A stretch of DNA of 64,000 nucleotides from Candidatus Omnitrophota bacterium (lineage in GTDB: Bacteria; Omnitrophota; Gorgyraeia; Gygaellales; Profunditerraquicolaceae), in NCBI GenBank assembly GCA_026387405.1, contig JAPLLV010000057.1:1503-65502 (forward strand). Reading direction: 5' to 3'. Position 1 is the first letter of the stretch. Each line of letters begins with the position of its first letter. Positions 16,640 through 64,000 of this stretch are shown piece after piece. The notes below the pieces were generated by a model. It was given only the letters and a program-made list of their open reading frames with translations, searched no databases and was not told the origin of the DNA. Position numbers and translations under genes: made by a program.

Positions 16640-19600
16640 GATATAAAAGCTATCTAAATTTTCGTCATTGCGAGCCCCGAAGGGGCGAAGCAATCAAATC
16701 TGAGATTGCTTCGTTTCGCTCGCAACCTTCGGGATTGCTTCGTCGCCTGCGGCTCCTCGCAATGACGATACCGATAATTTTCTCCCTGTTGTTAGGCCAT
16801 TCTGCGGCAGTTGAGAATGTGGCGACTGGTGATAATGTGACAGAGCTTAAGTTGGCCAAGGAGTTGGCCAGGCAGGAAACTCAAACCAAGAAAGAAGATC
16901 TGCGCCGCCAAAAAGAGGACGAGAAGAGGCGTAAGCTCCAGGCGCAGGCCAAAGAAAAACAAGAATTGCGTAGACAAAAGATATCGCAAAAGAAACGGCA
17001 GCAGGAAGAATTGCAGGCTAAAAAAGAACAGCAGAAAAGGCAATTAGAAGAGTCTAAGGAAGAGGAGTTGGCGCGGGAACGCGAGCGCCAGTGGCAATTG
17101 GCCGAGGAGCAACGGCAGCTGCAGGAGGATCTCGAAGAGAGAGGCCTGCAGGAAAAGAGGCACAAAGATGCGCAGGAGCAGCTAAAAGAAGATGTCCGGC
17201 AGGCAGACAAGCAAAAAGCAGAGGAGCTCCGGCAGCAGTTGGCTGATCAAAAGAAATATGAGCAGTATGAATTAATGCAACAAAAAGATGAAGAGGCGAA
17301 GAGGCTGGAGGAGCTCAGGGAACAGATAAAGGTCAGGGACGAAAGGCATATCTGGCAATTGGCCCAGGATAGAAAAGAATTAGAGCACCAGTTAGCCGCC
17401 GCGGATCTGGAGCGGCAGTTAAAACAGGAGGCGGCGCAAAAGGCAAAGGAACAGGCCAGGTTAGAAGCCCGGGTCAGGGAAGAAGACCGCCGGAAGCAAG
17501 AGGAGATCCAAAGACAGCAAAGGATAGATCAGCTGGCCGGGCAGAAGAAGCTGCAAGAGAAGAAGCAGCAGGAATTAAAGGCCGAGGTCGGCCTTAAAGA
17601 AGAGGTGCGCCGCAGCAGGGAGATGGAAGAGAGGCAACATACTTATGATGAGCTGGCCCAACGGCGCGTAGCGCAGTTAAATAGATTGGAATTCGCCCGG
17701 CTGAGCAGGGAAGAGGCCGAAGCCGAATTAAAGATCAAACATGAAGAGAAGTTAAAAGCGGAGGTTTTAGAGAAGCTGCGCAGGGAAGAAGGACAGGGAC
17801 AGATAGTCCAGGAGCGCTTGCAAAAAGAAGAAACGGCGAGGCAGAAGAGGGAGATTGGGCTGTCTGTTACCAAAGAAGAAGCCGCTAAAACTATTAAAGA
17901 GGCAAAGGCCGGGGAAGAAGAACGCTTGAAAAATATAACAGAAGAAAAAAAGCGCCGGTCGGAAGAAGCTGTCCAGAAGAAACAAGAAGAGCTAAAAATT
18001 TTGGCTGCCGCCAGAGAGCGCCGGGAGCGGGAATTGAAGGCAAAACAAGGGGGGTTGGCCGCGAAAGAGAAAGAACTACAGGAGAAACTCAAAGCCTCTG
18101 CCCTTGAAGCAGTGCAGGGCAAGGCCATGACCGAGGTGATGCTGGCCAAACAACGCGAGGACAACGCCAAGATAAATAAAATCGAGCATCTCTGGCGTAA
18201 ATCCAGGAAACTCTACGCCGAAGCGAAATACGAAGAGGCCATAAAAATGTTCCAGGAGATCATAGTCCTTGAAGGAAACCCGCGCGTAAAATACACCCCT
18301 TACGCCAAGATGTATTTAGAGAAGGCCCAGCAGAAGATCGAAGAACAAAAGAAATACGCGGCCGAACAGAATATAGCGCTGATGGATAATGAAATGAGCC
18401 GCCAGGTGCTCACCAAACAGATGCCTCCATACCTCGAACCTCCGCAGAAGACCGAGATCAAGGGTTTCACGGACGAGGAGCGCCTGATCGAGATGTCGCC
18501 TGTCAGGAAGACACTGCAGAAGAAGATCACCTTGGATTTCGACAAGTTAGATTTAAAAACGGTGATTGCCTTTTTATCGCAGGAGTCCGGGGTAAATATT
18601 ATCGCCTCGCAGAAAGTTCTGGAGATGGGGCTTAAGGTGACCGCGCGTTTCAAGGATACCGCCGCCGAGGAGGCGGTAAAATATATAACCAAGAGTTTAG
18701 GCCTTATCTACCGTATTGATAAAGACCTGATTTGGATCGCCCACCCGGAGGAGATCGCCAAGGAACCCCTTGAGACCCGGGTATATTATCTGAATAAGGG
18801 GGCGGGTTTATTTACGGAATTTTCCCCTATCTCGTCAGGTTCTTCAAGCGGCGAAACAAGCCTTGGAGGCAGTTCCGCGCAGATCACCAAAGTCCGCACC
18901 CTGGAAGATACCCTGAAGGACGCGATCCCCTGGCCTTCGGATTCCAAGCTTGTTTATGACAAGCGCGTGAACGCGCTCCTGGCGCGTAATACCCCGCAGA
19001 ATTTGCAGATGCTGGAAGATATACTTTTCAGCGTAGATGTCACGCCCTACCAGATCCTTATCGAGGCCAGGTTCATTGAAGTCGAAGTCGACGATACCAA
19101 GGAGTTTGGTTTGGAATGGCAATTCAACAACGATTTCGCGCTCACGTCCGCGTCTAATAAAGGCGGCAAAGCCAAAACCGTTATTACGAAGAATAGCGGT
19201 GTTGATTTCTCTACTTTCGCCCGCGCCGCAGAAGGATTAAACTTTACTTATCAGGGGTTGTTGACTAACCCGCAATTCCAGACCGTCTTACACGCGCTTT
19301 CAGAATCAAAGAAGATCAAGACCCTTTCTTGTCCGCGCATAACTACCTTGAACAATCAGCTGGCTACGATGAAGGTGGTTGACGAATGGATCTATCCCAC
19401 GCGGTATGAGTATGAAATTGTCCAGGTGGATTTAAACGGCGACGGGCTTTTTACCGGGGCGGGTGAGACGACATACAAAAACGTGCCCAAGGATTTCTTG
19501 CGGCGCGATGTGGGTATCCTGCTTAAGGTGGTTCCTTCCATGGGCTCGGATAGAAAGACCATCAGCCTTTCCTTGATCCCGGAAGTAAGCGAAGGTACTG

Positions 19601-19890
19601 CCGATGGGTTCACTTATGCCGGAGACGTAACGCTTCCAAAATTCACCTCGCGCAACCTTTCAACGACGGTTGTGGTCCAGAGCGGGGATACGGTAGTTTT
19701 GGGAGGACTAATTAAAGAGAGCCGCACGAAGACAACGACCAAGGTTCCGCTCTTGGGAGACGTGCCCTTTCTGGGTAATTTTTTTAGGAAGAACACCGAC
19801 AGCATTGCGCGCAAGAACCTGATAATTTTTGTGACCGCGAAAGTCCTTTCTCCCTCCGGGGAAGAAGTGGTAATGGCGCAGAAGAGATGA
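16636..19890 (+). CDS. pilQ: secretin (PilQ/GspD family) with a long ER/K-rich charged alpha-helical N-terminal extension
   Basis: C-terminal secretin signature ...VVVQSGDTVVLGGLIKESRTKTTTKVPLLGDVPFLGNFFRKNTDSIARKNLIIFVTAKVL. A secretin N-domain is present (...TLDFDKLDLKTVIAFLSQESGVNIIAS...). Residues ~70-600 are an almost pure E/K/R/Q/L coiled coil. The likely true start is ATG 16762 (MTIPIIFSLLLGHSAAVEN signal peptide), within the MITE terminus. Confidence 0.8.
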   Translation: MRYKSYLNFRHCEPRRGEAIKSEIASFRSQPSGLLRRLRLLAMTIPIIFSLLLGHSAAVENVATGDNVTELKLAKELARQETQTKKEDLRRQKEDEKRRKLQAQAKEKQELRRQKISQKKRQQEELQAKKEQQKRQLEESKEEELARERERQWQLAEEQRQLQEDLEERGLQEKRHKDAQEQLKEDVRQADKQKAEELRQQLADQKKYEQYELMQQKDEEAKRLEELREQIKVRDERHIWQLAQDRKELEHQLAAADLERQLKQEAAQKAKEQARLEARVREEDRRKQEEIQRQQRIDQLAGQKKLQEKKQQELKAEVGLKEEVRRSREMEERQHTYDELAQRRVAQLNRLEFARLSREEAEAELKIKHEEKLKAEVLEKLRREEGQGQIVQERLQKEETARQKREIGLSVTKEEAAKTIKEAKAGEEERLKNITEEKKRRSEEAVQKKQEELKILAAARERRERELKAKQGGLAAKEKELQEKLKASALEAVQGKAMTEVMLAKQREDNAKINKIEHLWRKSRKLYAEAKYEEAIKMFQEIIVLEGNPRVKYTPYAKMYLEKAQQKIEEQKKYAAEQNIALMDNEMSRQVLTKQMPPYLEPPQKTEIKGFTDEERLIEMSPVRKTLQKKITLDFDKLDLKTVIAFLSQESGVNIIASQKVLEMGLKVTARFKDTAAEEAVKYITKSLGLIYRIDKDLIWIAHPEEIAKEPLETRVYYLNKGAGLFTEFSPISSGSSSGETSLGGSSAQITKVRTLEDTLKDAIPWPSDSKLVYDKRVNALLARNTPQNLQMLEDILFSVDVTPYQILIEARFIEVEVDDTKEFGLEWQFNNDFALTSASNKGGKAKTVITKNSGVDFSTFARAAEGLNFTYQGLLTNPQFQTVLHALSESKKIKTLSCPRITTLNNQLATMKVVDEWIYPTRYEYEIVQVDLNGDGLFTGAGETTYKNVPKDFLRRDVGILLKVVPSMGSDRKTISLSLIPEVSEGTADGFTYAGDVTLPKFTSRNLSTTVVVQSGDTVVLGGLIKESRTKTTTKVPLLGDVPFLGNFFRKNTDSIARKNLIIFVTAKVLSPSGEEVVMAQKR
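16663..16767. repeat. RPE-like MITE, copy A (GTCATTGCGAG...CTCGCAATGAC family)
   Basis: Bounded by tcgtcattgcgag and ctcgcaatgacg, with internal hairpins ccccgaagggg and gaagcaatc...gattgcttc. The ATG inside the right terminus (16762) is in frame with the secretin signal peptide. Confidence 0.7.
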
Positions 19891-19892
19891 AA

Positions 19893-20058
19893 TTGTCATT
19901 GCGAACCCCCAAAGGGGGTGAAGCAATCACGTTTGAGATTGCCGCGTCGCCTGCGGCTCCTCGCTCGAACAATATAGTTTATTCTTCGAGCGGAGCGAAC
20001 GAAGTGAGCGTAGTCGAGAAGATAAAATTGTCGGTTCGCTCGAACAGTATTCTTGGGG
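19893..20058. repeat. composite repeat: RPE-like MITE copy B plus a TTCTTCGAGCGG...TCGAGAAG module
   Basis: ttgtcattgcgaacccccaaagggggtgaagcaatcacgtttgagattgc... is ~90% identical to copy D (23461-23555). Its 3' part matches 59931-60013. Confidence 0.65.
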
Positions 20059-20096
20059 TTAAGCAACAAATTCTATGATTAGGAGATTTCATAACG

Positions 20097-21758
20097 ATGC
20101 CGGAATTAAGCCTTGAAGAAAGCATTATAAAAGAAGGAATACTGTCGGCCCCGCAGCTGCAGACTGTAAAGATAGAATTGCAGCGCAGCTCTATCACTTT
20201 GGTAGAAGCGATACGCCGCCTGCGGTTTGTCCCGGAAGACACGCTGATAAATTTTTTGAGCAGCAAGCTGCATCTGAAAGTATTCAGCGCCGCAGGCTAT
20301 TCGCCTTCTCAGGATATACTTGCCCTTTTGCCGGTTGAATTTCTGTGGGAGAAAAAGGTTGCGCCGCTATTGAAAGAAAACGATGAACTTACGGTAGGGG
20401 TGCTGGATCCTTTGAATACCGCGCTATTGGAAGAGGTGCGTTTTCGCACCGGCTTCTTTATTCGTCCCTGTTTGATCAAAGAAGAGGATTTAAACAGCGT
20501 TTTAGCCAAATATTATAACCGTAGAAGCGGCTTGCGTGCCGCGGCTAAGGAAGAGAAAGTAATAGAGCAAATAAGAGAAGAGGGCGCCGAGCCTTCGGCA
20601 ATTGAGGCAGCCAATCTTTTACTCATCCAGGCTATTAAATTCAATGCCTCGGACGTGCATATTGAACCGCAAAGCAAGGATAAGATGTCTTTGCGTTTAC
20701 GCATAGACGGCGTACTCAAAGAGATCAGCCCTCCCGATCCCAAGATATTCAATGCTTTTATTTCCCGTATCAAAATAATGTCTAACCTGGATATTGCCGA
20801 GAGGCGCCTGCCGCAAGACGGAAGGTTTAGTTTCACTACAGAAGACAGCGCTCTGGATGTGCGCGTCTCGGTAATCCCCACCATACAGGGAGAGAGTATT
20901 GTTTTAAGGCTTTTGAAACAAAACAAGAAATTACTCTCTCTCCAGGAGTTGGGCATGTCTAAAGATAACTTCGAGAAGTATAGAAAATTCATTCAGAGGC
21001 CCTCCGGGATCATCCTTGTTACAGGTCCCACCGGAAGCGGAAAAAGCACCACTCTCTACGCGTCATTATTATCCTTGCAGAGCGTGGAAAAGAATATTAT
21101 TACCATTGAGGATCCCGTAGAGTATCAATTGGATTTTTGCCGCCAGATCCAGGTTAATCACAAAATAAATCTCGTATTTGCCACGGGCCTGCGCTCGATA
21201 TTAAGGCATGACCCGGATATAATAATGGTGGGCGAAATAAGGGACCTTGAGACCGCCACTATCGCTATCCAGGCCGCGCTTACCGGGCACCTGGTGCTTT
21301 CTACCTTGCATACCAATGACGCCGCCTCGGCAGTCACGCGCTTGATCGATATGGGGATTGAACCTTTTTTGATCGCTTCTTGTTTGAACGGCGTGGTGGC
21401 CCAGCGATTGATCAGGGTCCTCTGCCCAAAATGTAAAAAGCCGAAAGTCTATACTTCCAATGACCCTGCGTTCTCCGCGATTTCTTCTGAAGCCACGGCT
21501 GCGGGGTATGAGACAGTGGGCTGCCAGGATTGCCTGAACACCGGCTTTTCAGGACGCCTGGGCATATTCGAAGTCATGGAGATGAGTCCCGAGATCGGGC
21601 GCAAGAGCGTTGATAAGGCCTCTTCCGATGTGATCAATGATTTGTGCCGCAAGGAAGGTATGAAATTCTTGCATGACGACGGACTCCAGAAGGTTCTTGC
21701 CGGATTGACAACACCGCAGGAATTATTACGCGTGATCGGCACAAAGTTGAAGAGTTAA
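20097..21758 (+). CDS. pilB: type IV pilus assembly / T2SS ATPase (GspE/PilB family)
   Basis: Walker A motif LVTGPTGSGKSTTLYASL. Also ..MVGEIRDLETA.., ..LSTLHTNDAA.., and a C-terminal CxxC zinc motif (CPKCKK ... CQDC). N-terminal GSPII_E_N-like domain. Confidence 0.9.
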   Translation: MPELSLEESIIKEGILSAPQLQTVKIELQRSSITLVEAIRRLRFVPEDTLINFLSSKLHLKVFSAAGYSPSQDILALLPVEFLWEKKVAPLLKENDELTVGVLDPLNTALLEEVRFRTGFFIRPCLIKEEDLNSVLAKYYNRRSGLRAAAKEEKVIEQIREEGAEPSAIEAANLLLIQAIKFNASDVHIEPQSKDKMSLRLRIDGVLKEISPPDPKIFNAFISRIKIMSNLDIAERRLPQDGRFSFTTEDSALDVRVSVIPTIQGESIVLRLLKQNKKLLSLQELGMSKDNFEKYRKFIQRPSGIILVTGPTGSGKSTTLYASLLSLQSVEKNIITIEDPVEYQLDFCRQIQVNHKINLVFATGLRSILRHDPDIIMVGEIRDLETATIAIQAALTGHLVLSTLHTNDAASAVTRLIDMGIEPFLIASCLNGVVAQRLIRVLCPKCKKPKVYTSNDPAFSAISSEATAAGYETVGCQDCLNTGFSGRLGIFEVMEMSPEIGRKSVDKASSDVINDLCRKEGMKFLHDDGLQKVLAGLTTPQELLRVIGTKLKS

Positions 21759-21792
21759 CATCGTCATTCAGACTATGTCAGAATACCATTTT

Positions 21793-21897
21793 TCGTCATT
21801 GCGAGCGACCAACGGGAGCGAAGCAATCTCAAAAACGTGATTGCTTCTCCGCCTTCGGCGGATCGCAATGACAACATGTTTGTGTCTCGCAATGACA
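21793..21897. repeat. RPE-like MITE, copy C
   Basis: tcgtcattgcgagcgaccaacgggagcgaagcaatctcaaaaacgtgattgcttc...gatcgcaatgacaacatgtttgtgtctcgcaatgacaag, with a duplicated right terminus. Confidence 0.7.
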
Positions 21898-21907
21898 AGT
21901 TGAAAAA

Positions 21908-23452
21908 GTGATCAGAACTAATCAATTACCCACAATGATTTTTGGCAGAAGATGGCTGTACGGAATACTGGCAGTGATCTGTATCATAATTTATGCCAAT
22001 TCTCTGGGGGGCGCTTTTGTTTCCGATGATATCCCGGGCATAGTAAAAAATCCCGGCCTTTCCCGGCCGGGGGATTTTATCCTTAATCCCCCGGTATTCC
22101 TGGCTTCTTTAAATTATATATCGGCAAAGTTCAACCCCCTGTCGTATCACTTAACCAATCTTTTCCTGCACATCCTTAATTCCATCCTGGCCTTCATATT
22201 CTTGGGACTGTTTTTTAAAACCGAACCCGCATTCCTGGGGGCTTGTTTATTTGCCGCTCATCCCGTTCATGCCGAGGCAGTGTCCTGGATCTCAGGCAGG
22301 CCGTATCTTACGCTGGGGCTCTTTATATTCGCCGCTTATCTTTTTTATCATCGCGCAGTGCGGGATGACCGAAAGGTCTCAATCAAGTTTTATGTTTTAA
22401 GCCTGGTTACGTTCTCATACTACCTGGTTGATTCTTACTCATTCTACGCTATGTTCGTTTTTTTTCTGGTATTGTGCGATCTGACGTTGGAGAGGTGCAG
22501 AAGGACATGGAGATTATGGCTCCCGTTCTTTTTTATCCTGCTGGCAAGGTTGGTATTGGCCAAATCCGCCATAGGCGCAAGGCTGCATTTTGTGACAAAA
22601 GAAATGGGCCTTAACCATGCAGAATGGACAAATCCCATCAATAATATGGCTTATTCACTCTTTTCACATTTTAGCCTGCTTGTAGTGCCGGCTAAATTAA
22701 GTCTTTACCATGAGCCGGCGGTCATCTCTTCATTAATACTTAAAATATTGCTCTGCATTTTATTACTCCTCTTGATTATTTCACCTTTTATATATAAAAG
22801 GGCCAGGAGGATCTTCCTGGCTATGGGTATTTTTGTCCTTTTCCTTGTTCCTACGTATAGCCCTTTTCCTTTTAGTTGGTTGGTTGCGGAAAGGTATGTT
22901 TATTTTTCAGCTATCTCTTTATGCATGATCTTAGCCTTTTTATATGAAAAATACGCACAGAAATGTCCAAACAGGATACATTATGCCCTGGTAGTTTTTC
23001 TCCTTATAGTGGCCGCATACGCGGCAAGGACCGTGGCCAGAAATGAAGACTGGCAGTCTCCCGGAAGGTTATGGAGGCAGACAGTAGCGGTATCGGATCT
23101 ATCTCCGCGGGCGCACAACAATATGGGCGACGCCTATGGGCAGGAGGGCAATACCGACGGGGCGATCAGAGAATTCAAGCGGGCAATCGCATTAAAGCCC
23201 GACTATGCCGACGCGTATCACAATCTGGCTAATACTTACGAGGGGCAAGGCTCGTCGGAAGAGGCGATAAAATACTATCTCCAGGCGGTAAATTTTAACC
23301 CCGGGCTTTTTGAGTCCCAGTATAACCTGGGGGTGATTTATTTGAATAAGGGACAGAATATTGAGGCCATAAAGTATCTTACCAGGGCAAAAGAGCTTCG
23401 TCCCGACGATGCCGGGGTAAACGCAGCCTTAAATATAGCTTACAAAAGGTAA
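21908..23452 (+). CDS. polytopic membrane protein with C-terminal TPR repeats (TMTC/PMT_2-like glycosyltransferase architecture)
   Basis: At least 8 TM segments are followed by TPR motifs (...ADAYHNLANTYEGQGSSEEAIKYYLQAVNFNPGLFESQYNLGVIYLNKGQNIEAIKYL...). The real start is probably ATG 21935 (MIFGRRW...). Confidence 0.55.
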   Translation: MIRTNQLPTMIFGRRWLYGILAVICIIIYANSLGGAFVSDDIPGIVKNPGLSRPGDFILNPPVFLASLNYISAKFNPLSYHLTNLFLHILNSILAFIFLGLFFKTEPAFLGACLFAAHPVHAEAVSWISGRPYLTLGLFIFAAYLFYHRAVRDDRKVSIKFYVLSLVTFSYYLVDSYSFYAMFVFFLVLCDLTLERCRRTWRLWLPFFFILLARLVLAKSAIGARLHFVTKEMGLNHAEWTNPINNMAYSLFSHFSLLVVPAKLSLYHEPAVISSLILKILLCILLLLLIISPFIYKRARRIFLAMGIFVLFLVPTYSPFPFSWLVAERYVYFSAISLCMILAFLYEKYAQKCPNRIHYALVVFLLIVAAYAARTVARNEDWQSPGRLWRQTVAVSDLSPRAHNNMGDAYGQEGNTDGAIREFKRAIALKPDYADAYHNLANTYEGQGSSEEAIKYYLQAVNFNPGLFESQYNLGVIYLNKGQNIEAIKYLTRAKELRPDDAGVNAALNIAYKR

Positions 23453-23460
23453 AATAAAGC

Positions 23461-23555
23461 TCGTCGGGTCATTGCGAACCCCCGAAGGGGGTGAAGCAAT
23501 CACGTTTGAGATTGCGTCGTCGCCCGCCTGCGGCGGGCTCCTCGCAATGACGGGG
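23461..23555. repeat. RPE-like MITE, copy D
   Basis: tcgtcgggtcattgcgaacccccgaagggggtgaagcaatcacgtttgagattgcgtcg...ctcctcgcaatgacgg. Confidence 0.7.
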
Positions 23556-23587
23556 AGATAAGGAAGTGTAAATAAACGGCATTTTTT

Positions 23588-23616
23588 TTGCATTGGCTTG
23601 TTTTATCGGCTATAGT
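23588..23616 (+). promoter_or_regulatory. candidate promoter in the AT-rich spacer between MITE copies D and E (-35 TTGCAT, 17 bp, -10 TATAGT)
   Basis: TTGCAT at 23588-23593, TATAGT at 23611-23616, upstream of the pseudopilin gene at 23797. Confidence 0.3.
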
Positions 23617-23660
23617 TTATATAGAGGTTCATATTATATATAGGAAGGAATTTTAATTAA

Positions 23661-23752
23661 CGTCATTGCGAGCGAAGCGAAGCAATCCCATTTTAGATTG
23701 CCTGCCTGCCGGACAGGCAGGCTTCGGCACTTCGTGCCTCGCAATGACAAGA
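23661..23752. repeat. RPE-like MITE, copy E (contains the ctgcctgccggacaggcagg hairpin module)
   Basis: cgtcattgcgagcgaagcgaagcaatcccattttagattgcctgcctgccggacaggcaggcttcggcacttcgtgcctcgcaatgacaag. Confidence 0.7.
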
Positions 23753-23796
23753 TGTTCATGGTTCTCAATGACCGTTTGGAAATAGAAAATTTAATT

Positions 23797-24347
23797 ATGA
23801 AGAAAAATTTAACAAGGGGTTTCACATTGATTGAAGTGATGATCGCAGTTTCCATTTTTACGGTGCTTATGGCCATTATGGCCGGCATTATTTTCGGGCT
23901 CTTTAAGACCATGCGCCAGGGAGAAGATATATTGAATAAGGAACAGAGACAGAGGATGTGTTTTTCGCGTATAAGCAGAGACATCTCCAGCTTATCTAAG
24001 GCAGCGCCGCCAAATTTATCTTTTAAGGGCGAACAAAACAGTTTTTTTTTATCTCGGCGCGGGAGGATAGCGTGGTGGAAGCCAGGTATAGCTTTATTCC
24101 CGGCGTTTCAAGTATTATGCGTTATTATGACACGGCGGTGGACTATGATGAAACCACATACCAGTCAAGCGACGTCTGCCTGGACAAGCTGGCGGACTGT
24201 AAATTTAGCTACAATGACGGCACTGCCTGGAGGGATACCTGGGATAAGGATGCAGGGAGCCATCCGAGCATGGTAAAGATAACTTTCAGGTTCAATGATG
24301 AGGAAAAAGAGAGAGATTTTGAGGTTAATATACCGGTGAGCCCATGA
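23797..24347 (+). CDS. prepilin-type pseudopilin (GspJ-like C-terminus) with apparent frameshift at a T9 homopolymer (24042-24050)
   Basis: N-terminal class-III signal MKKNLTRGFTLIEVMIAVSIF (ATG 23797, frame 1). After the T9 run the protein continues only in frame 3 (...ARYSFIPGVSSIMRYYDTAVDYDETTYQ...AWRDTWDKDAGSHPSMVKITFRFND...), ending at 24347. Confidence 0.6.
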
Positions 24348-25936
24348 AAAAATATAAACGCCGCAGCCGCATAGGGGGCCAATCGCCCGCCATTCTGAAA
24401 AGGATGGCGGGCTTTTTATTTGCCTGTTTAAACAGGAATAAAACATTAATTATATTAATAAGTTATGTATTTTTAACGAGTTATCTGGTTTACATTGTTG
24501 ATTCCGGTTTTACCGCCGAGACAAGCAGCGCTTCGTACACAGTAGGCCTGCTTACCTTTGTCAACGGCTCGGGGAGCGCCTCTTCGACTAATATCCTGCT
24601 GGAACATTCGATCCTCGGGGATATTGTGGCTACGACTCAGATGTCCAGCGATAAATACGGAGTGGATACCGGCCAGGTTTCTTTGATGCAGCCATTAGGC
24701 AAGGAGAAAATAGAGCTGATTTCCGATTTGAGGGCGCTCACAGGTGTCGCGGGGGTCACCATAAAAGAAGCGGCTTGGCAGAAGCATAATGCCCCTTATT
24801 TTTACTGGCACATAGATACCGCGCGTTCGAGCCTGCTTAAAGGCGTTTCTGTGGCTTTAGACAGGACGCCCGATGAGACCATTGATACCGATAATGATTT
24901 TTATCAATTTGCCGATAATAGTATTTCTTCCGGCAAGCACACCTTTTATGTTATGCCGATTATCGCAAGCGGCCCATACACGGATAATACGCTTAAGTTC
25001 GATATCTGGGTGGATACCGAACCGCCGGTAATACGCAACGCCTTACCGGTGGCCGGTTCTCTTACATCTAACGGAAAAATCCCGATAAGCTGTTTATTGT
25101 CCGACCCTGATTCCGGATTGGATATGAATCTGACCAGACTAAGCTTAAACGGGTCCAACGCCGCGTTCACTTATGACGACAAAAAACAAACCCTTAGCTA
25201 CGCGCCTGATTCCGGTTATCCGGAAGGGAGGAACGCGGTCCTTTTGACCGCTTATGATCTAGTAGGGAATTATATTACGAAGGGTTGGGATTTTATTGTG
25301 GATACGCAGCCGCCGTCAGGAAGCATTTTGATTAATAACGGCGAAGCAGTGACTTCTTCACCTCATGTCTTTTTAAACCTTGACACGCAAGATGTGGTTT
25401 CGGGAGTAAGAAATGTTTATATTTCCAATGACGGAGTGTTCGATACGGAACTAAACCATCCGTATCCTTATAGCGCGATAATTTCTGATTGGCTCCTCAA
25501 CGAGCCGGCTGTTGACGGCCCCAAGACCGTATATGTGAAATTTGATGATCAGGCCGGTAATCTCTCCGAGACTTATAGCGCCGGAATTGAGCTTAAGCTT
25601 CTCGTTCCGCGCACCAGGATCATTTCCGGTCCGGCGAGCGTTACTAATGAGACAACCGCAGAATTTAGATATGAGGCCACAAAGCAAAATTGTAAATTCA
25701 GCTATAAGCTGGATAACGGCGAATGGTCTGTCTGGTCGACCGAGCAGGCAATCGATTTTACGGGCCTGCCCCTGGGTAACCACTATTTTTACGTTAAGAG
25801 CGGACTGGACCTAAACGGCAACGGTGAGATAGGCCTTGATGAAGAGGATCCTACGCCCGCGCAGTGGGTGTGGACCATTACCAACGAAGACGAATTAGGA
25901 AAACAAAAACGTAAGACGTTATTCTGGCGTCGTTAA
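24344..25936 (+). CDS. membrane-anchored surface protein with Ig/Fn3-like repeats (hypothetical; pilus-associated position)
   Basis: N-terminal TM LIILISYVFLTSYLVYIV. Repeated ~100-aa modules begin DTEPPVI / DTQPPSG. 530 aa. Confidence 0.45.
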   Translation: MKKYKRRSRIGGQSPAILKRMAGFLFACLNRNKTLIILISYVFLTSYLVYIVDSGFTAETSSASYTVGLLTFVNGSGSASSTNILLEHSILGDIVATTQMSSDKYGVDTGQVSLMQPLGKEKIELISDLRALTGVAGVTIKEAAWQKHNAPYFYWHIDTARSSLLKGVSVALDRTPDETIDTDNDFYQFADNSISSGKHTFYVMPIIASGPYTDNTLKFDIWVDTEPPVIRNALPVAGSLTSNGKIPISCLLSDPDSGLDMNLTRLSLNGSNAAFTYDDKKQTLSYAPDSGYPEGRNAVLLTAYDLVGNYITKGWDFIVDTQPPSGSILINNGEAVTSSPHVFLNLDTQDVVSGVRNVYISNDGVFDTELNHPYPYSAIISDWLLNEPAVDGPKTVYVKFDDQAGNLSETYSAGIELKLLVPRTRIISGPASVTNETTAEFRYEATKQNCKFSYKLDNGEWSVWSTEQAIDFTGLPLGNHYFYVKSGLDLNGNGEIGLDEEDPTPAQWVWTITNEDELGKQKRKTLFWRR

Positions 25937-25944
25937 GCGTGTAA

Positions 25945-25988
25945 TTCCAGACCCGCGGTGGATGCATGCTTCCACCGCGGGTCTGGAA
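25945..25988. repeat. REP-like palindromic hairpin, perfect (ttccagacccgcggtgga / tgcatgc / ttccaccgcgggtctggaa)
   Basis: Lies between the stop of the upstream gene (25936) and the ATG of the giant gene (26003). Confidence 0.8.
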
Positions 25989-26002
25989 AACGGAGGCTTA
26001 AA

Positions 26003-49498: not shown

Positions 49499-52315
<2,817 letters not shown>

Positions 52316-52439: not shown

Positions 52440-53075
52440 ATGATCCTGGAAACCCTTAGTTTAGGCGCGATAGAGACTAATTGCTATGTCCTGGCGGTTC
52501 AAGAAGGGGCCGGCGCTGTAATCATCGACCCCGGGGCAGAGGAGCGCAAAATAAGGGCAGTGCTGGCAAGGTATGATCTGCATCCGGAGCTGGTGGTAAA
52601 TACCCACGGCCATTATGACCATATAGGCTGCGACGACAAATTCAATGTGCCGGTTGCGATACACAAAGACGATGTCTCTTTTTTGAAAGATCCCATGCTT
52701 AACCTGTCCGGGATGTTTTCTGTTCCTTATAAAACAGATGCCGAGATAATACCCCTGGAGGATAAACAGGTTATAGAGCAGGGCGGGATAACCTTAGAGG
52801 CCTTGCATATACCCGGACATACGCCTGGAGGCATCGCTCTTTTATTGAAGAGCCCGCAGAATAATATCGTTTTCACCGGGGATACATTATTTTGCCGGGG
52901 AATAGGCAGGTCCGATTTAGACGGGGGAGATGGGGCGCTGCTTATTCGCAAGATAAAAGAAAAATTGTTCAGCCTCCCCGACAATACGATGGTTTATCCC
53001 GGCCACGGTCCATCTACTACGATCGGCGAAGAAAAACAGCACAATCCCTATTTCCAGACCCGCGGTGGAGGTTAG
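52440..53075 (+). CDS. MBL-fold metallo-hydrolase (hydroxyacylglutathione hydrolase-like)
   Basis: Metal-binding motif VNTHGHYDHIG, later HIPGHTPG and PGHG. The track start 52425 lies inside MITE F; ATG 52440 is more likely. The last 8 codons overlap a REP arm. Confidence 0.75.
   Translation: MILETLSLGAIETNCYVLAVQEGAGAVIIDPGAEERKIRAVLARYDLHPELVVNTHGHYDHIGCDDKFNVPVAIHKDDVSFLKDPMLNLSGMFSVPYKTDAEIIPLEDKQVIEQGGITLEALHIPGHTPGGIALLLKSPQNNIVFTGDTLFCRGIGRSDLDGGDGALLIRKIKEKLFSLPDNTMVYPGHGPSTTIGEEKQHNPYFQTRGGG
53052..53069. repeat. REP-like motif, single arm, overlapping the 3' end of the MBL hydrolase gene
   Basis: ttccagacccgcggtgga. Confidence 0.6.
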
Positions 53076-53157
53076 AACGTGGTAAAAAAGGAAAGAATCT
53101 GAAAAAAAGGCGTTAGATTTCATCACTCCTTACGTCTTGTAATATAGGGGGTGATAT

Positions 53158-53793
53158 ATGTCTTATAGAAAAACGCCTTTGGTTGAAGGTAATGTTTATC
53201 ATGTTTACACTAGAAGCATTGCAGGGTATGTAGTTTTCAGCGGCGAACGCGAGTATCATCGTGCGTTGGAGACAATAAATTTCTACGTTGCAGAACATCC
53301 GCCTAGTAAATTTTCTTCCAGACCCGCGGTGGAAGTGGATAAAGGAGAAAAGCTGGCTCGGATAATCGCCTATTGCTTGATGCCTACACACATACATTTG
53401 GTTCTGCAGCAGTTGAAAAAGAATGGAATTTCTCGGTTGATGAATTTGGCGTTTAACAGTTACAGTTCCTATTTCAATAAAAAACATAACAGGAGGGGCC
53501 CGCTTTGGGAAAGCAGGTTTAAAGTCGTGCCTGTAGAAAGCGACGAACAGTTACTACATCTGACCAGGTATATTCATTTAAACCCGGTGACTGCTTTTTT
53601 GGTAAACAGTCCTGAAGGATGGACATATTCCTCTTATCGTGAATACCTCGGTCTTGTGGAAGAAAGACAAAGAATCTGTGAATTCTCCAATTGTCTTGAG
53701 ATTAATGCTCTGGAGTATCAGCGTTTTGTTTGCGATCGCATCGGTTATCAACGGGAATTGGCCAGGATAAAAAATCTACTTATTGACGAATAA
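53158..53793 (+). CDS. REP-associated tyrosine transposase / IS200-like Y1 HUH transposase (COG1943 family), copy 2
   Basis: ...YHVYTRSIAGYVVF...IIAYCLMPTHIHLVLQ... (HxH) ...SYSSYFNKKHNRRGPLWESRF... It carries an internal in-frame REP arm at 53316-53335 (peptide SRPAVE). Confidence 0.85.
   Translation: MSYRKTPLVEGNVYHVYTRSIAGYVVFSGEREYHRALETINFYVAEHPPSKFSSRPAVEVDKGEKLARIIAYCLMPTHIHLVLQQLKKNGISRLMNLAFNSYSSYFNKKHNRRGPLWESRFKVVPVESDEQLLHLTRYIHLNPVTAFLVNSPEGWTYSSYREYLGLVEERQRICEFSNCLEINALEYQRFVCDRIGYQRELARIKNLLIDE
53316..53335. repeat. REP-like motif, single arm, inside the RAYT copy 2 coding sequence
   Basis: ttccagacccgcggtggaag, shares the extended form ...ggaagtgg with the copy at 53808. 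Confidence 0.6.
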
Positions 53794-53807
53794 ACCTTTA
53801 TTTTTCC

Positions 53808-53826
53808 TCCAGACCCGCGGTGGAAG
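53808..53826. repeat. REP-like motif, single arm, just 3' of RAYT copy 2
   Basis: ctccagacccgcggtggaagtgg. Confidence 0.6.
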
Positions 53827-53852
53827 TGGGGAAATAACCCATTTTTAACGGT

Positions 53853-56868: not shown

Positions 56869-57978
56869 ATGAAGGTAATAAGGGGAATTTCAAATATCAG
56901 GCGTTTTCCGCTGCCGGTGGTGGCATTAGGCGTATTTGACGGCGTGCACCTGGGGCACAGGAGTATTCTTTCGGCGGCGGTTGAGACTGCCAAAGAAATA
57001 AGAGGGACCAGCGTTGCCGTGACCTTCTGGCCGCACCCGCAAAATAGGAAGAGCCTTTATTCTCTTGAACATCGCCTGCGCATAATCGGCGAATTGGGGC
57101 TTCAGGCGGCGATCGTAATAAAGTTTACCGGGGCGTTCTCGCGCCTTTCGGCAGAGCGTTTTGTCAAAGACATCCTCGTGGATCGCATTTCGGCCCGTTA
57201 TATCTTCATAGGAAAAAATTTCCATTTCGGTAAAGATAGAAAGGGTGATTACCGCCTTTTGCAAAGATCCTCCGCGCGAAATAATTTTAAAGTAAGGGTA
57301 TTTGAGATCATACGGCGTAAAGATATGCCCATAAGCAGCACGTTGTTGCGCGAGCTGATAAGCCGAGGAGAATTATCCCGGGCAAGGCAATTATTGCTGC
57401 GGCCGGTGAGTGTTCTGGGCACAGTGATCAAGGGGGAGTCCAGAGGTTCTTCCCTGGGATTTCCCACGGCCAATATCGACCCACATCATGAGGTGCTTCC
57501 TCCTGACGGGATTTACGCGGTGCGCGTTATCCTGGGAGGGAAAAAGTTTAAAGGCGTTTGTTATATAGGTAAAAAGCCTACTTTTAGAAAGCATCTATCC
57601 AATAATCGTCATTGCGAGGAGGCTGAAGAGATTCCTCGCCTGTCATTGCGAGGCACCGCAGGTGCCGAAGCAATCTCTATAACAGGCTCGGAACAGGCTG
57701 CGCAATCTCAAAAACAGGATTGCTTCGCCCCCTGCCTTGCCGGCAGGCAGGCTTCGGGGCTCGCAATGACGGTTGCCGGGCAGTTTCCGAGGCGCCGAGA
57801 GTCAACAGGCATTGAGGTGCATATCCTGGGTTTTCACAGGAATATTTACGCTAAGACGTTAGAGATACAATTTATAAAAAAAATAAGGGAGGACAGGAAA
57901 TTCAGTTCCGCATTAAAGCTCTCCGGCCAGATAAAAAAAGATATATCCCGCGCAAAAAACATTTTTTCCCACACCTGA
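56869..57978 (+). CDS. ribF: bifunctional riboflavin kinase / FMN adenylyltransferase, carrying an in-frame MITE insertion (~56 codons)
   Basis: N-terminal ...VVALGVFDGVHLGHRSIL... The kinase region ...GVCYIGKKPTF... is separated from ...GIEVHILGFHRNIYAKTLEIQFIKKIREDRKF... by the translated MITE (SNNRHCEEAEEIPRLSLRGTAGAEAISI...GLAMTVAG). Confidence 0.85.
   Translation: MKVIRGISNIRRFPLPVVALGVFDGVHLGHRSILSAAVETAKEIRGTSVAVTFWPHPQNRKSLYSLEHRLRIIGELGLQAAIVIKFTGAFSRLSAERFVKDILVDRISARYIFIGKNFHFGKDRKGDYRLLQRSSARNNFKVRVFEIIRRKDMPISSTLLRELISRGELSRARQLLLRPVSVLGTVIKGESRGSSLGFPTANIDPHHEVLPPDGIYAVRVILGGKKFKGVCYIGKKPTFRKHLSNNRHCEEAEEIPRLSLRGTAGAEAISITGSEQAAQSQKQDCFAPCLAGRQASGLAMTVAGQFPRRRESTGIEVHILGFHRNIYAKTLEIQFIKKIREDRKFSSALKLSGQIKKDISRAKNIFSHT
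57605..57772. repeat. RPE-like MITE, copy G (compound: two left termini), inserted in-frame within ribF
   Basis: tcgtcattgcgaggaggctgaagagattcctcgcctgtcattgcgaggcaccgcaggtgccgaagcaatctc...gattgcttcgccccctgccttgccggcaggcaggcttcggggctcgcaatgacgg. Confidence 0.75.
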
Positions 57979-59533: not shown

Positions 59534-59534
59534 T

Positions 59535-59903
59535 ATGAAACTATCAAGGTTCTTATTATTGGTGCTTCTTTTTACCGTCGTATCGCTTTTGTATGTGTTT
59601 CAGCAAACGGAGATCATTCGCCTGGCGTATCTGGAGCAGAAACGGTCTACGGTATTCCAGGGGCTTTTGGATAAAAATACGGTCTTGCAATACAACATTA
59701 AAAAGAGCGCTTCGCTTGTGCGTATAGGCAGCAGGATCTCCAAGGATGGGGATTTTCAGATGCCTAATAGTTACCAGCTGGTCAGGCTGGAGCGTCCCGC
59801 TTCGCAATCAAGGGCGATCGCGCGCCTGTTCAATAGGCCCAATGTCTTCTCGCGTATCTTTGCGGTAAAGAGAGAGGCAGAGGCATATACCATTAATCCC
59901 TAG
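59535..59903 (+). CDS. ftsL: cell division protein FtsL-like (small bitopic membrane protein)
   Basis: MKLSRFLLLVLLFTVVSLLYVFQQ TM plus a short coiled coil, in the canonical position between rsmH and ftsI. Confidence 0.55.
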   Translation: MKLSRFLLLVLLFTVVSLLYVFQQTEIIRLAYLEQKRSTVFQGLLDKNTVLQYNIKKSASLVRIGSRISKDGDFQMPNSYQLVRLERPASQSRAIARLFNRPNVFSRIFAVKREAEAYTINP

Positions 59904-60013
59904 CGTTCTCCCTGCCTGCCGGCAGGCAGGGACTCGGCGCCTGCGGCGCCTCGCTCGAACGATACGTTTTATTCTTCGAGCGGAGCGAACGAAGTGAGCG
60001 TAGTCGAGAAGAA
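59896..60013. repeat. composite interspersed repeat (ccctgcctgccggcaggcagggactcgg + cctcgctcgaacgata + ttcttcgagcggagcgaacgaagtgagcgtagtcgagaag)
   Basis: Near-copy of 49196-49290 and of the 3' half of 19893-20058. Confidence 0.6.
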
Positions 60014-61793: not shown

Positions 61794-63264
61794 AATATTA
61801 GAGGCAAATCCGAGTATCCCGGAGGCCTGTGATTTTCAGGTCAGGGGCATCGCCTGCGACTCCAAAAAGGTGGGTGAGGATTTTGTCTTTGTGGCTATAA
61901 AGGGGGCAAGGGCAGACGGCCACAAATTCATCGAGGAAGCTATACAGAGAGGCGCGCGCTTTATCGTGGTCCAGAATTCCAGACCCGCGGTGGAAGAAAA
62001 AAGGGGGATATTTTCGTATAAAGATAATAAAAAAGTAATATTCATAGAAGTTAGCGATACAAGAAAGGCGCTTGCGGACCTGGCAGCGCGTTTTTATGAT
62101 CAGCCTTCGCAAAAACTTAAGGTCATCGGCATTACCGGCACCAATGGCAAGACTACGATCTCGTATTTATTGGAAGCCATATTGAAAAAAGCGTCCTTCA
62201 GTTCCGCGGTAGTCGGGACTATCAATTATCATTTTAAGGATAAGATCATTGCTGCCAAAAACACCACTCCCGGGCCGCTTGAACTTCAGGCGCTGCTTGC
62301 CGAGATGCTTAAAGAGAAAACGGAGTACGTGGCTATGGAGGTTTCTTCGCACGCGCTGGACCAGAGGCGCGTTGAAGGCATAAATTTTCATGCCGCGGTG
62401 TTTACCAACCTGACCCAGGATCACCTTGATTACCATCTGACTTTAGAGGAATATTTTTTGGCCAAGGCAAAATTATTTCAGGGTCTTAGTCCCGGGGCAT
62501 TGGCCATAGTGAATAATGATGATCCTTATGGCCGCAGGATAAGAGATCTCACCCCCGCCAGATTTATCGGTTACGGCATAGATAGTCCGGCAGAGGTCAT
62601 GGCCGTTGATCTGGAATGCGATATTAACAGGACGCGGTTTAAGATCAGGACGGATAAACAAACCATAACTTTAGAAAGCCGCCTGATCGGCAAACACAAT
62701 GTCTACAATATATTAGCAGCGGCAGCCTTTAGTCTGGAAGAGGGCATAGAAGTAAAAAACATAAAAGCGGCAATTGAGGATTTCGTTCTTGTCCCGGGCA
62801 GGCTGGAGAGGATAGAAACTCCTGCGGGATTTTCGGTGTTTGTGGATTACGCGCATACTCCGGACGCGCTTTTTAACGTGCTTACGGCATTGCGCAATGT
62901 ATCTTCAGGCAGGTTGATCCTGGTCTTTGGCTGCGGCGGCGACCGCGATAAGACCAAAAGAGCGAAAATGGGTCAGGTGGCCTCTGAGCTCGCAGATCAC
63001 GTTTTTATTACCAGCGATAACCCGCGCTCAGAGGCCCCGGAGGCTATTATCTCTGATATTATAAAAGGGGTGAAAAAAGAGAACTATGCGGCAGTCGTGG
63101 ACCGCCGTCAGGCCATAGAGAAGGCCCTGGGGACAGCCAGGGAAGGGGATATTGTGCTTCTGGCAGGTAAAGGCCATGAGGATTATCAGATATTTAAAGA
63201 CAAGACCATTCATTTTAGCGACCAGGAAGTAGTGCGTGAATGCTTAAGGGCGCTTAATAAATAA
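61771..63264 (+). CDS. murE: UDP-N-acetylmuramoyl-tripeptide synthetase
   Basis: ...GITGTNGKTT... P-loop, ...HFKDKIIAAKNTTPGPLELQALLAEM..., ...AMEVSSHAL... Mur ligase domains. A REP arm is embedded in-frame at 61977-61996. Confidence 0.9.
   Translation: MRLTHLIKILEANPSIPEACDFQVRGIACDSKKVGEDFVFVAIKGARADGHKFIEEAIQRGARFIVVQNSRPAVEEKRGIFSYKDNKKVIFIEVSDTRKALADLAARFYDQPSQKLKVIGITGTNGKTTISYLLEAILKKASFSSAVVGTINYHFKDKIIAAKNTTPGPLELQALLAEMLKEKTEYVAMEVSSHALDQRRVEGINFHAAVFTNLTQDHLDYHLTLEEYFLAKAKLFQGLSPGALAIVNNDDPYGRRIRDLTPARFIGYGIDSPAEVMAVDLECDINRTRFKIRTDKQTITLESRLIGKHNVYNILAAAAFSLEEGIEVKNIKAAIEDFVLVPGRLERIETPAGFSVFVDYAHTPDALFNVLTALRNVSSGRLILVFGCGGDRDKTKRAKMGQVASELADHVFITSDNPRSEAPEAIISDIIKGVKKENYAAVVDRRQAIEKALGTAREGDIVLLAGKGHEDYQIFKDKTIHFSDQEVVRECLRALNK
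61977..61996. repeat. REP-like motif, single arm, inside murE coding sequence (translated SRPAVE)
   Basis: ttccagacccgcggtggaag. Confidence 0.6.
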
Positions 63265-63276
63265 TACCAAATATCA

Positions 63277-63355
63277 TCGTCATTGCGAGGGAGCGAAGCT
63301 ACCGAAGCAATCTCAAAGACGGGATTGCTTCGCCCCTTCGGGGCTCGCAATGACG
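63277..63355. repeat. RPE-like MITE, copy I (murE-murF intergenic)
   Basis: tcgtcattgcgagggagcgaagctaccgaagcaatctcaaagacgggattgcttcgccccttcggggctcgcaatgacg. Confidence 0.75.
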
Positions 63356-63370
63356 TTAACTCGGACAGCA

Positions 63371-64000
63371 ATGTTTACCATATCAGAACTATTACAGGCT
63401 ACAAAAGGTAAATTAATCCGCGGGCGCGCCGATATCAGCGTTAGGGGTATCTCTATTGACTCACGCACTATCGAGCCTTCTTATGCCTTTATCGCCATAA
63501 AAGGGGATAATTTCGACGGCCATGATTTTATTGCCCGGGCAATAGCTAAAGGAGCTAAGGCCATAGTCTACCAATCGTCATTGCGAGGGAGATGTTCTCC
63601 TGTCATTGCGAGGAGCGATTTTTGCGACGAAGCAATCTCTAAAAGCGTGATTGCTTCAGCGCCTGCGGCGCTTCGCAATGACGGCGGGGCTCGCAATGAC
63701 AGTAGAAAAGTAGCATTTATTGAAGTCAGGGATACGGTAAAGGCGCTGGGAGATATTGCTAATTTTCACCGTATGCGGTTTGATATTCCGGTGATCGCGG
63801 TTAGCGGTTCTTCGGGCAAGACCACCGCCAAAGAGATGATCGCCCACGTTTTGGCGTTTAAGTTTAAGGTGCTAAAGTCAGAGGGCACAAAAAACAATAA
63901 TATCGGCCTGCCGCTTACCTTACTGCGGCTAACCCCCAAGCATGAGGCGGTAGTCCTAGAGATAGGCACTAACCATTTCGGCGAGGTAAGGAACCTGGTT
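63371..64000 (+). CDS. murF: UDP-N-acetylmuramoyl-tripeptide--D-alanyl-D-alanine ligase, 3'-truncated by window edge, carrying an in-frame MITE insertion (~42 codons)
   Basis: ATG at 63371. Hand translation is open to the window end: MFTISELLQATKGKLIRGRADISVRGISIDSRTIEPSYAFIAIKGDNFDGHDFIARAIAKGAKAIVYQ [SSLRGRCSPVIARSDFCDEAISKSVIASAPAALRNDGGARNDS] RKVAFIEVRDTVKALGDIANFHRMRFDIPVIAVSGSSGKTT... It is not in the ORF track because no stop falls inside the window. Confidence 0.8.
   Translation, partial: MFTISELLQATKGKLIRGRADISVRGISIDSRTIEPSYAFIAIKGDNFDGHDFIARAIAKGAKAIVYQSSLRGRCSPVIARSDFCDEAISKSVIASAPAALRNDGGARNDSRKVAFIEVRDTVKALGDIANFHRMRFDIPVIAVSGSSGKTTAKEMIAHVLAFKFKVLKSEGTKNNNIGLPLTLLRLTPKHEAVVLEIGTNHFGEVRNLV
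63577..63703. repeat. RPE-like MITE, copy J (compound), inserted in-frame within murF
   Basis: tcgtcattgcgagggagatgttctcctgtcattgcgaggagcgatttttgcgacgaagcaatctctaaaagcgtgattgcttcagcgcctgcggcgcttcgcaatgacggcggggctcgcaatgacag. Confidence 0.75.

Follow-up and report, generated by a model that had tools for sequence, protein, structure and literature searches.

Recent gains of a probable CGTC-tagged family of paired palindromic repeats in a Candidatus Omnitrophota genome

Repetitive extragenic palindromes (REPs) that carry a CGTC tag were described as a superfamily with four families, CGTC-1 to CGTC-4, by Di Nocera, De Gregorio and Rocco (2013, BMC Genomics 14:522; PMC3733652). That paper describes units with an unpaired CGTC or TGTC tag, a stem of 8–9 bp that starts with AT, a loop of 4–5 nt and a short tail (CCA), found in several phyla, mostly as pairs with outward tags and variable spacers downstream of open reading frames (ORFs). 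It records in-frame intragenic copies, including copies in cell-wall and replication/repair genes, and finds no associated transposase. It also equates the Rickettsia palindromic elements (RPEs) RPE-6 and RPE-4 of R. conorii with CGTC-1 and CGTC-4, respectively, and dRS3 of Neisseria with CGTC-1, cites N. aromaticivorans for CGTC-2, and lists VIPAKAGI, VIAGLDPAI, VIPWLDHGI and RHSELVSGS/VILDGRNIEF as family peptides (PMC3733652). Here we describe family-1, a repeat present at nine loci in a stretch of 64,000 nucleotides from a Candidatus Omnitrophota bacterium (assembly GCA_026387405.1, contig JAPLLV010000057.1, positions 1,503 to 65,502 of the forward strand), referred to below as the window. 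We interpret its copies as CGTC-tagged, REP-type paired units that are non-autonomous, selfish or nearly neutral, and recently proliferated in this Omnitrophica lineage, and give this interpretation a probability of about 0.6.

Two repeat families were distinguished in the window: family-1, with GTCATTGCGAG termini, and family-2, which had been noted as a related module. Matches to GTCATTGCGAG with at most one mismatch number 22 on both strands, compared with 0.74 ± 0.84 in dinucleotide shuffles, and all fall within the nine intervals of family-1 except for a chance match at 51711. An nhmmer profile built from the copies returned exactly the nine loci, with no other at E<0.1. An earlier sequence-only reading of the window had proposed a family of at least 10 copies; the family is real at the coordinates given there, and the count is nine loci that hold about 11–12 units. 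The terminal inverted repeat of that reading is likewise present, with its true ends one base further out, at (C/T)GTCATT...AATGAC(G/A). The outer stem is formed by (C/T)GTCATTGCGAG pairing with CTCGCAATGAC(G/A) over 11–12 bp, the central hairpin by GAAGCAATC-loop-GATTGCTTC, and a GC-rich hairpin at each side of this core completes a four-way junction upon folding, with minimum free energies of −43 to −83 kcal/mol. The side hairpins vary in sequence among copies yet stay self-complementary (CCCCGAAGGGG, GCACCGCAGGTGC, GGGCGCCTTTTGCCC, CCGCCTTCGGCGG, GCGCCTGCGGCGC), and small GC-rich modules, CGCCTGCGGCG and CTGCCTGCCGGCAGGCAG, turn up in several different elements. A conserved internal hairpin with variable GC-rich sub-hairpins, as proposed earlier, is seen in both the sequences and the folds. 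The consensus arm contains d(GCGAAGC), a hyperstable DNA mini-hairpin, and the C-GAA-G and C-TTCG-G loops of the Omnitrophica side hairpins are exceptionally stable hairpin motifs in DNA (as is UUCG in RNA). The presence of such motifs in both the arm and the side hairpins fits selection for hairpin extrusion.

The ends of the elements were defined from 82 distinct elements, in which GTCATT follows a C in 74% of cases and a T in 22%, and AATGAC is followed by G in 76% and by A in 23%. The base preceding the tag is a pyrimidine, mirrored at the right end, and the flanks further out are random, giving overall termini of the form YCGTC...GACGR and terminal inverted repeats CGTCATTGCGAG / CTCGCAATGACG. 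Seven of the nine left ends in the window read CGTC, the exceptions being copies B (TGTC) and D (GGTC). No target motif was found in the 82 elements beyond the YCGTC/GACGR ends, and there is no excess of direct repeats of 2–5 nt at offsets 0–2 that would indicate a target-site duplication (TSD). No copy encodes a protein, in line with the earlier statement that none carries a transposase. It is also true, as had been remarked, that each copy has at least one stop-free plus-strand frame; the number of open frames, 23 of 54 compared with 16 in shuffles, is barely above chance. Open frames as a designed property of the elements were rejected, as this number is not statistically unusual.

Short spacers between co-directional genes hold six of the nine copies, and five of these (B, C, D, F and H) begin 3–35 nt past a stop codon; coordinates of repeats are given here without a strand. 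Copy B (19894–19965) starts 3 nt past the stop codon of the secretin gene. Copy C (21794–21897), made up of an inner element at 21794–21873 and a second right terminus, lies 35 nt past the stop of a type II secretion/type IV pilus (T2SS/T4P) ATPase gene and 10 nt ahead of a tetratricopeptide repeat (TPR) gene. Copy D (23467–23552) starts 15 nt past the stop codon of the TPR gene and is preceded by a CGTC-like tract, TCGTCGG, that begins 9 nt past the same stop. Copy F (52326–52430) is positioned between a 169-aa ORF (stop at 52315) and a metallo-beta-lactamase-fold gene, and copy H (63278–63355) sits between murE and murF, 13 nt past the murE stop codon. The sixth intergenic copy, E (23661–23749), lies 5' of a pilin-like gene and has a CTGCCTGCCGGACAGGCAG module in its right arm. 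The pilin-like ORF at 23698–24276 shows the N_methyl motif from residue 39, indicating that the real start of the gene lies downstream of copy E. The remaining three copies are inside coding sequence and are translated in frame: copy A (16662–16768, 105 nt) occupies codons 10–44 of the secretin gene, copy G (57607–57771) lies in ribF and combines a short unit with a full element and a ~32-nt internal duplication, and copy J (63577–63701) lies in murF, with an inner element at 63601–63683 nested in an outer terminus pair. The duplicated termini of C, G and J, which had already been read as compound copies, mark nested or tandem units. Setting aside a single 9-nt indel, copies B and D, for which about 90% identity had been given, are ~92% identical. 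Relative to transcription the central loop is found either way round: it is TCAAAAACGT-like in copies C, G, H and J, and B and D have the reverse complement, ACGTTTGA.

Comparison with two related genomes shows that most of these sites have changed recently. The sister genome, GCA_041643015.1 (loci L121 and L123), is 88–92% identical to the window at the nucleotide level and 80–86% at third codon positions, and the outgroup, GCA_026387515.1 (loci L122 and L124), is more distant. The orthologous sites in the sister lack copies A, C, D, E, F and H: the C site is a 15-nt spacer, the F site is an 8-nt spacer (13 nt in the outgroup), and at the H site murE and murF overlap. The B site is empty in the outgroup (L124), with a 2-nt gap, and outgroup RibF (P0003) is without the copy G insertion. 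At the B site the sister carries a half element that is identical at 56/59 positions to the right half of window copy C. Copy C and the B site lie on opposite sides of the ATPase gene, making this a near-identical half copy at a non-orthologous site, and the identity exceeds that of neutral sites and extends over the non-consensus spacer. In the ftsL-ftsI spacer a family-1 element is found in the sister (L121 12936–13005) where the window has family-2 modules, and the family-2 element at 49196–49290 is missing from the orthologous L121 site. In sister RibF (L121) the loop that holds copy G still has a decayed remnant, GGAGCTCGCAATG, indicating that the ribF insertion is older than the other gains. 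Overall, eight of the nine sites differ between window and sister at only 8–12% nucleotide divergence. The absence of copies from orthologous sister and outgroup sites indicates that most are gains in the lineage of the window, and these gains are recent. The mobility suggested by the sequence-only reading is borne out by the gains relative to both relatives, by near-identical copies at non-orthologous sites and by presence/absence polymorphism, with the sister lacking most copies, so that the same sequence does not stand at every orthologous site. The D/E spacer of the sister (L123 13240–13500) holds another palindrome, CCCCGTTAGAGA...TCTCTAACGGGG, that is absent from the window; related genomes carry different repeat repertoires at the same spacers.

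Of the three genes with in-frame copies two are essential (RibF and MurF), and in RibF, MurF and the secretin the open frames and flanking domains are retained despite the copies. The secretin gene (16636–19890) encodes 1084 aa compared with 1050 aa in the sister, and the extra residues correspond to copy A. An ATG at 16762 in the right terminus of copy A is in frame with the secretin and may be an alternative start; similarly, an ATG at 52425 in the right terminus of copy F is in frame with the metallo-beta-lactamase-fold gene. In both copies the ATG lies within CTCGCAATGAC, and the element can in this way donate an alternative start codon, and with it a false N-terminal extension in annotation. 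Copy G adds ~56–57 codons inside the riboflavin-kinase domain of ribF (56869–57978). Pfam cuts the Flavokinase domain of window RibF into two stretches, and solved PDB structures of RibF align to its residues 17–218 and 309–366. Most of the RibF orthologues listed have ~300–310 aa, and the closest insert-free ones (P0003 and P0004) are without the copy G insertion. Other Omnitrophica RibF proteins (P0027 and P0036) have unrelated inserts of 20–30 residues in the same loop, between CYIG.KPTF and IEVHI, and insertions seem to recur at this loop. In MurF, whose gene starts at 63371, the copy J region comprises 43 residues compared with 10 in the sister protein (L121). The homologous N-terminal-domain loop, situated after ...IVVQ / ...IVYQ and before KKV.FIEV, carries a repeat in both of the paralogous genes murE (61979–61993) and murF (63577–63701), from a different repeat family in each, and this loop of Mur ligases appears to be a permissive insertion hotspot. 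Copies of family-1 survive only at permissive places, namely short co-directional spacers (mostly after stop codons), the secretin N-terminus, a putative surface loop of RibF and the MurF loop.

The repeat is not confined to Omnitrophica. The pattern GTCATTGCGAG-N4-20-GAAGCAATC, which has 20 fixed bases and an estimated chance expectation of ~18 in the whole genome collection, was found at a minimum of 120 loci in the species-genome collection. The matches listed include Bradyrhizobium, Sphingomonas, Novosphingobium, Rhodospirillales, Rickettsiales and Gammaproteobacteria on the proteobacterial side, and also Desulfobacterota, Pedobacter, Mucilaginibacter, Flavobacterium, Chryseobacterium, Chloroflexi, Microcoleus, Melainabacteria, Patescibacteria, Planctomycetota, Ignavibacteria, Zixibacteria, Latescibacterota, Helicobacter and Sporomusa. 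The architecture is common to at least 10 phyla, and 79 complete elements in the 120 genome loci share the order CGTCATTGCGAG-(CGAAGC or GAGCGAAGCGAC)-GAAGCAATCC-variable spacer-GGATTGCTTC-...-CTCGCAATGACG. Near-identical arms of ~30 nt are found in more than 10 phyla and in viral contigs. The pattern is also present in IMG/VR viral contigs, for which the listed matches are a minimum, and some of these contigs carry capsid, portal and terminase genes. Unannotated copies are present on megaplasmids of Novosphingobium, Methylosinus, Methylocystis, Methylobacterium, Halomonas and Legionella, and on pNL2 of N. aromaticivorans a copy lies 13 nt past the stop of a dioxygenase gene, between co-directional genes. 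One replicon of Novosphingobium resinovorum carries at least 40 copies. The sequence-only reading had taken the repeat for a different sequence in an unrelated lineage; read as lineage-specificity, this is contradicted by identical termini and core in many phyla and in viral contigs. Single half units are seen on viral contig L139 (3339–12744), where 6–8 copies of GTCATTGCGAG...GAAGCAATC stand in one orientation in the spacers of co-directional phage genes, each directly 5', on the sense strand, of AGGGCTAAAGAAGG and a start codon; this arrangement could reflect an RNA-level or a replication-strand effect. On viral contig L170 four half units of 33 nt, GTCATTGCGAGCCTGCGAAGCAATCTGGTCGTC, stand in tandem at 2695–2826 beside a terminase-like gene, and the 33-nt period would stay in frame if translated.

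In our interpretation each element is a pair of units with the tags outward, (Y)CGTC-ATTGCGAG-[mini-hairpin]-GAAGCAAT-C ... G-ATTGCTTC-[mini-hairpin]-CTCGCAAT-GACG(R), and in single-stranded DNA it would form an extruded hairpin or cruciform. A trans-acting enzyme would cut next to the CGTC tag and then paste or copy the element; by analogy with GTAG REPs and their REP-associated tyrosine transposases (RAYTs), and with IS200/IS605, this would be a Y1 HUH-type enzyme. All gene-disrupting insertions would then be purged by selection. In transcripts the hairpins probably act as tolerated operon passengers and not as terminators. It is possible, if on the unlikely side, that the elements are moved by a single-strand-DNA enzyme that is broadly conserved or carried by phages, and such an enzyme would explain why near-identical 30-nt arms, with no transposase linked to them, are spread over viral contigs and more than 10 phyla. 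A weaker variant would have one of the RAYT-like genes of the window cross-mobilise the elements. Several observations weigh against our interpretation. The mobilising enzyme was not identified in the flanks searched, leaving the central mechanistic step to analogy. Filled and empty sites are too diverged for insertion junctions to be placed to the base, and recombination or gene conversion among existing copies could explain some of the near-identical copies without transposition. The uniform orientation of the L139 units upstream of ribosome-binding sites could mean a role at the RNA level. Finally, the family-1 half unit deviates from the published CGTC template: its perfect stem is 5 bp (ATTGC/GCAAT) instead of 8–9 bp, and GAG/GAA mismatches (an internal loop) are followed by an apical hairpin of 6–16 nt instead of a loop of 4–5 nt.

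An alternative is that the copies are not selfish but are functional RNA hairpins that selection keeps in place to stabilise 3' ends or to serve as processing sites or attenuators of operon mRNAs, in line with proposals made for E. coli REPs. The placement of five of the six intergenic copies just past stop codons inside operons, the very stable hairpins, whose sense strand has loops of C(UUCG)G type, the shared orientation of the L139 single units ahead of ribosome-binding sites and the copy behind the dioxygenase gene of N. aromaticivorans would all be expected of such hairpins. We nevertheless regard this explanation as unlikely, as eight of the nine sites differ at 8–12% divergence, three copies lie inside coding sequences and the overlap of murE and murF in the relative means that copy H entered a working junction. 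The mixed orientation of the central loop in the window argues further against a strand-specific RNA role in this genome. With the Rfam 15 covariance models only tRNA-Pro passes the gathering threshold in the whole window, and no match at E<=1 is obtained over 16500–24000; a known RNA family was rejected on these results. None of the terminator-like sites in 13000–26000 coincides with copies A–E, whose flanks have no T-run (no U-tract in the transcript), and an intrinsic terminator was rejected because the hairpins lack this run. Strict two-fold symmetry and the conservation of two blocks of 9–12 nt across phyla would also suit binding sites for a conserved dimeric host protein (a nucleoid protein, gyrase or IHF-like protein, as for bacterial interspersed mosaic elements, BIMEs) or recombination targets such as dRS3. 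This is the least probable of the explanations weighed here: copy number is very different between sister genomes, the family is limited to some species, a search for a candidate protein gave none, and the in-frame copies are hard to square with a site-specific role.

Two further explanations concern the enzyme. The sequence-only reading had suggested the RAYT-like genes of the window as possible partners, and both of them, RAYT-1 (53158–53793, plus strand, 211 aa, with the HUH motif THIHLV and the tyrosine motif RYIHLNP) and RAYT-2 (47987–48658, plus strand, 223 aa), match Y1_Tnp and, at scores below the NCBIfam cut-off, the NCBIfam REP-associated tyrosine transposase. Both relatives, which have few or no elements, lack RAYT-1 at the orthologous spacer, the whole REPtron-like cassette at 53045–53830 being missing there between the metallo-beta-lactamase-fold gene and xerC, and the missing TSD fits HUH chemistry. 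That one of these genes is the sought CGTC-repeat enzyme is quite unlikely, however, as each is flanked by a different repeat of its own, for which reason they were rejected as specific partners of family-1. RAYT-1 is bounded by direct copies of CCAGACCCGCGGTGG (11 matches compared with 0.05 expected). RAYT-2 is flanked by a perfect inverted repeat of ~20 bp with the core GGGACAGCGACTAT; the core GGGACAGCGAC of this repeat is found beside RAYT-2 homologues, too, in 44 of 80 metagenomic loci (L245–L324), and the 329 kb of these loci contain only nine family-1 termini. Extra paired repeat copies occur nearby; RAYT-2 and its repeat (47882–48681) are a separate RAYT/repeat system with conservation across metagenomes from groundwater and sediment. 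A search of 2.0 Mb (244 loci, nearly all taken around elements elsewhere) gave no homologue of RAYT-1 or RAYT-2, and Di Nocera et al. report the same for other CGTC families (PMC3733652). A classical MITE (miniature inverted-repeat transposable element), that is, a deletion derivative of an insertion sequence (IS) whose 11–12 bp terminal inverted repeats are recognised by a DDE transposase, would account for small, non-coding, dispersed and polymorphic copies with such repeats. It is very improbable, and the term MITE used in the sequence-only reading does not hold in its strict sense, as no TSD is seen at the tested offsets in the 82 elements and no IS with element-like ends and no recurrent transposase was found in ~240 element-bearing loci. 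In addition, near-identical termini across phyla are unlike IS ends, and single half units exist alone. An all-against-all BLAST of the ORFs within 1–2 kb of the elements, with repeats masked, in 120 and then 240 loci, gave no recurrent neighbour gene; the clusters obtained were artefacts, made up of ORFs that run across the repeat or of structural phage genes that related viral contigs have in common, and small GIY-YIG nucleases were rejected as companions, no such cluster being present. Among three candidates for a composite transposon (left unit, ORF, right unit) were an IS in L046 and an actin-like gene in L222, neither of which is a partner. The L046 IS (556–1840, on a contig of a Patescibacteria metagenome-assembled genome, MAG), the only transposase found between two elements, belongs to the Mutator family (IS256-like), is bounded by unrelated inverted repeats of its own, TAATTAGTACCCTAATGG..., and is inserted exactly between them. 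The termini of these two elements that face it are altered (CTCGCAATGgg / ccCATTGCGAG), and the repeats may be insertion targets for an IS.

The surroundings of family-1 in the window include further repeats. All credible genes of the 64 kb are on the plus strand, and cumulative GC skew climbs almost monotonically. The genes comprise a type II secretion/type IV pilus cluster, two giant ORFs (663–7436, 2257 aa; 25958–46048, 6696 aa), ligA, a xerC-like gene, ribF and the dcw cluster mraZ-rsmH-ftsL-ftsI-murE-murF. No family-1 element is found in the giant ORF at 25958–46048, and 16663 marks the first copy of the window. Family-2 has termini TTCGAGCGAG/CTCGCTCGAA and the same plan as family-1, and the related module proposed earlier at three places is real, with a fourth site added. 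In the element at 13441–13555 the outer stem is TATTGTTCGAGCGAG/CTTCGCTCGAAGAATA and the central hairpin is GAGTCGAGAA/TTCTCGACTC, with side hairpins as well; the element at 49196–49290 has a CCCTGCCTGCCTGCCTGCAGGCAGGG module also present in copies E and G; modules at 59896–60013 lie in the ftsL-ftsI spacer; and the units at 19955–20050 adjoin copy B and include a 44-nt stretch, TTATTCTTCGAGCGGAGCGAACGAAGTGAGCGTAGTCGAGAAGA, identical to 59968–60011. Copy B itself is a chimera, with a left half and core of family-1 and a family-2 terminus, CTCGCTCGAACAATA, at its right end. A third repeat, (T)TCCAGACCCGCGGTGGA(A/G)G, has 11 matches in the window compared with 0.05 expected and none in the four loci of the relatives. 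Its positions are 13392–13431, 25947–25986, 48756–48770, 49780–49794, 53054–53068, 53318–53332, 53809–53823 and 61979–61993, and it forms two inverted pairs with hairpins of 21–22 bp as well as single copies. Single copies are translated in frame in murE (SRPAVE), inside the RAYT-1 ORF, at the C-terminus of the metallo-beta-lactamase-fold protein and at the start of ligA.

These results extend the orphan CGTC repeat class, which includes two Rickettsia RPE families, to Omnitrophica, and reveal one sequence family common to many phyla, megaplasmids and viral contigs. The window amounts to a clean natural experiment, in which eight of nine sites were gained or changed at ~10% nucleotide divergence. 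The burst, set against a sister with almost no copies, offers a comparative handle, as genes confined to burst genomes could reveal the CGTC-repeat enzyme that has been missing since 2013, and such genome pairs can show how proteins take in 35–57 extra residues in putative surface loops. In the annotation of MAGs, the repeats lead to false extensions at N-termini, to ORFs that are fused or elongated and to "hypothetical proteins" with peptides such as CHCEERSDEAIS and LRFARNDG.

When compared with known systems, family-1 most closely resembles the CGTC REPs. It has an outer unpaired (C/T)GTC tag and a stem starting with AT(T), forms outward-tag pairs in all nine window loci and in 79 full pairs among the 120 genome loci, with single units also existing, lies mostly downstream of ORFs (6/9 in co-directional spacers) with 3/9 copies in frame, and has no adjoining transposase in the flanks searched. 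The tail after the stem reads GCAAT-CCAG in alphaproteobacterial copies and GCAAT-C plus a variable base in the window. Apart from the stem and loop dimensions given above, family-1 differs in that the Omnitrophica copies fold as a four-way junction, in its peptides (VIASEAKQS, CHCEERSDEAIS, LRFARNDG, VIARSDFCDEAIS, HCEE..., LAMT and ARND) and in the phyla recorded, which are new. We provisionally treat family-1 as a further CGTC family, set apart by the listed peptides and the stem template; N. aromaticivorans, listed for CGTC-2, carries family-1, and identity with CGTC-2 is possible. Short strings from the repeat motifs were found in the literature only in unrelated primers, and longer strings were not found in 8 million papers.

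Like the Rickettsia RPEs of Ogata et al., the elements are palindromic, ~100–150 bp in length and present both in frame in housekeeping proteins and between genes, and proliferation followed by decay has a counterpart here in the ribF remnant of the sister. RPE-4 and RPE-6 carry the same CGTC tag (PMC3733652), and the resemblance to RPEs is on this basis a superfamily relationship, not only an analogy. The likeness to RPEs proposed in the sequence-only reading stands for the non-coding hairpin repeats, the in-frame copies and the shared CGTC superfamily, and falls for lineage-specificity. The host phylum and probably the core sequence differ, and family-1 is pan-bacterial whereas RPEs are restricted to their genus. 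With the REPs and BIMEs of E. coli and Pseudomonas that are associated with RAYTs, family-1 shares short hairpin units, inverted pairs, mosaics with other modules, the lack of a TSD and a location in intergenic spacers of operons; in contrast to GTAG REPs and REPtrons, its tag is CGTC and its units flank no RAYT gene. Bacterial MITEs (Correia, Nezha, Chunjie and the Coxiella QMITEs) are similar in size, terminal inverted repeats, occasional in-frame insertion and the lack of coding capacity, and differ in that family-1 has neither a target duplication nor a parent IS. In Neisseria, dRS3 is an integration target for filamentous prophages. The dRS3/NIME mosaics of this genus resemble the elements described here in that inverted units of CGTC type bracket variable modules and chimeras form between repeat families, whereas the sequence differs and prophage integration was not observed for family-1.

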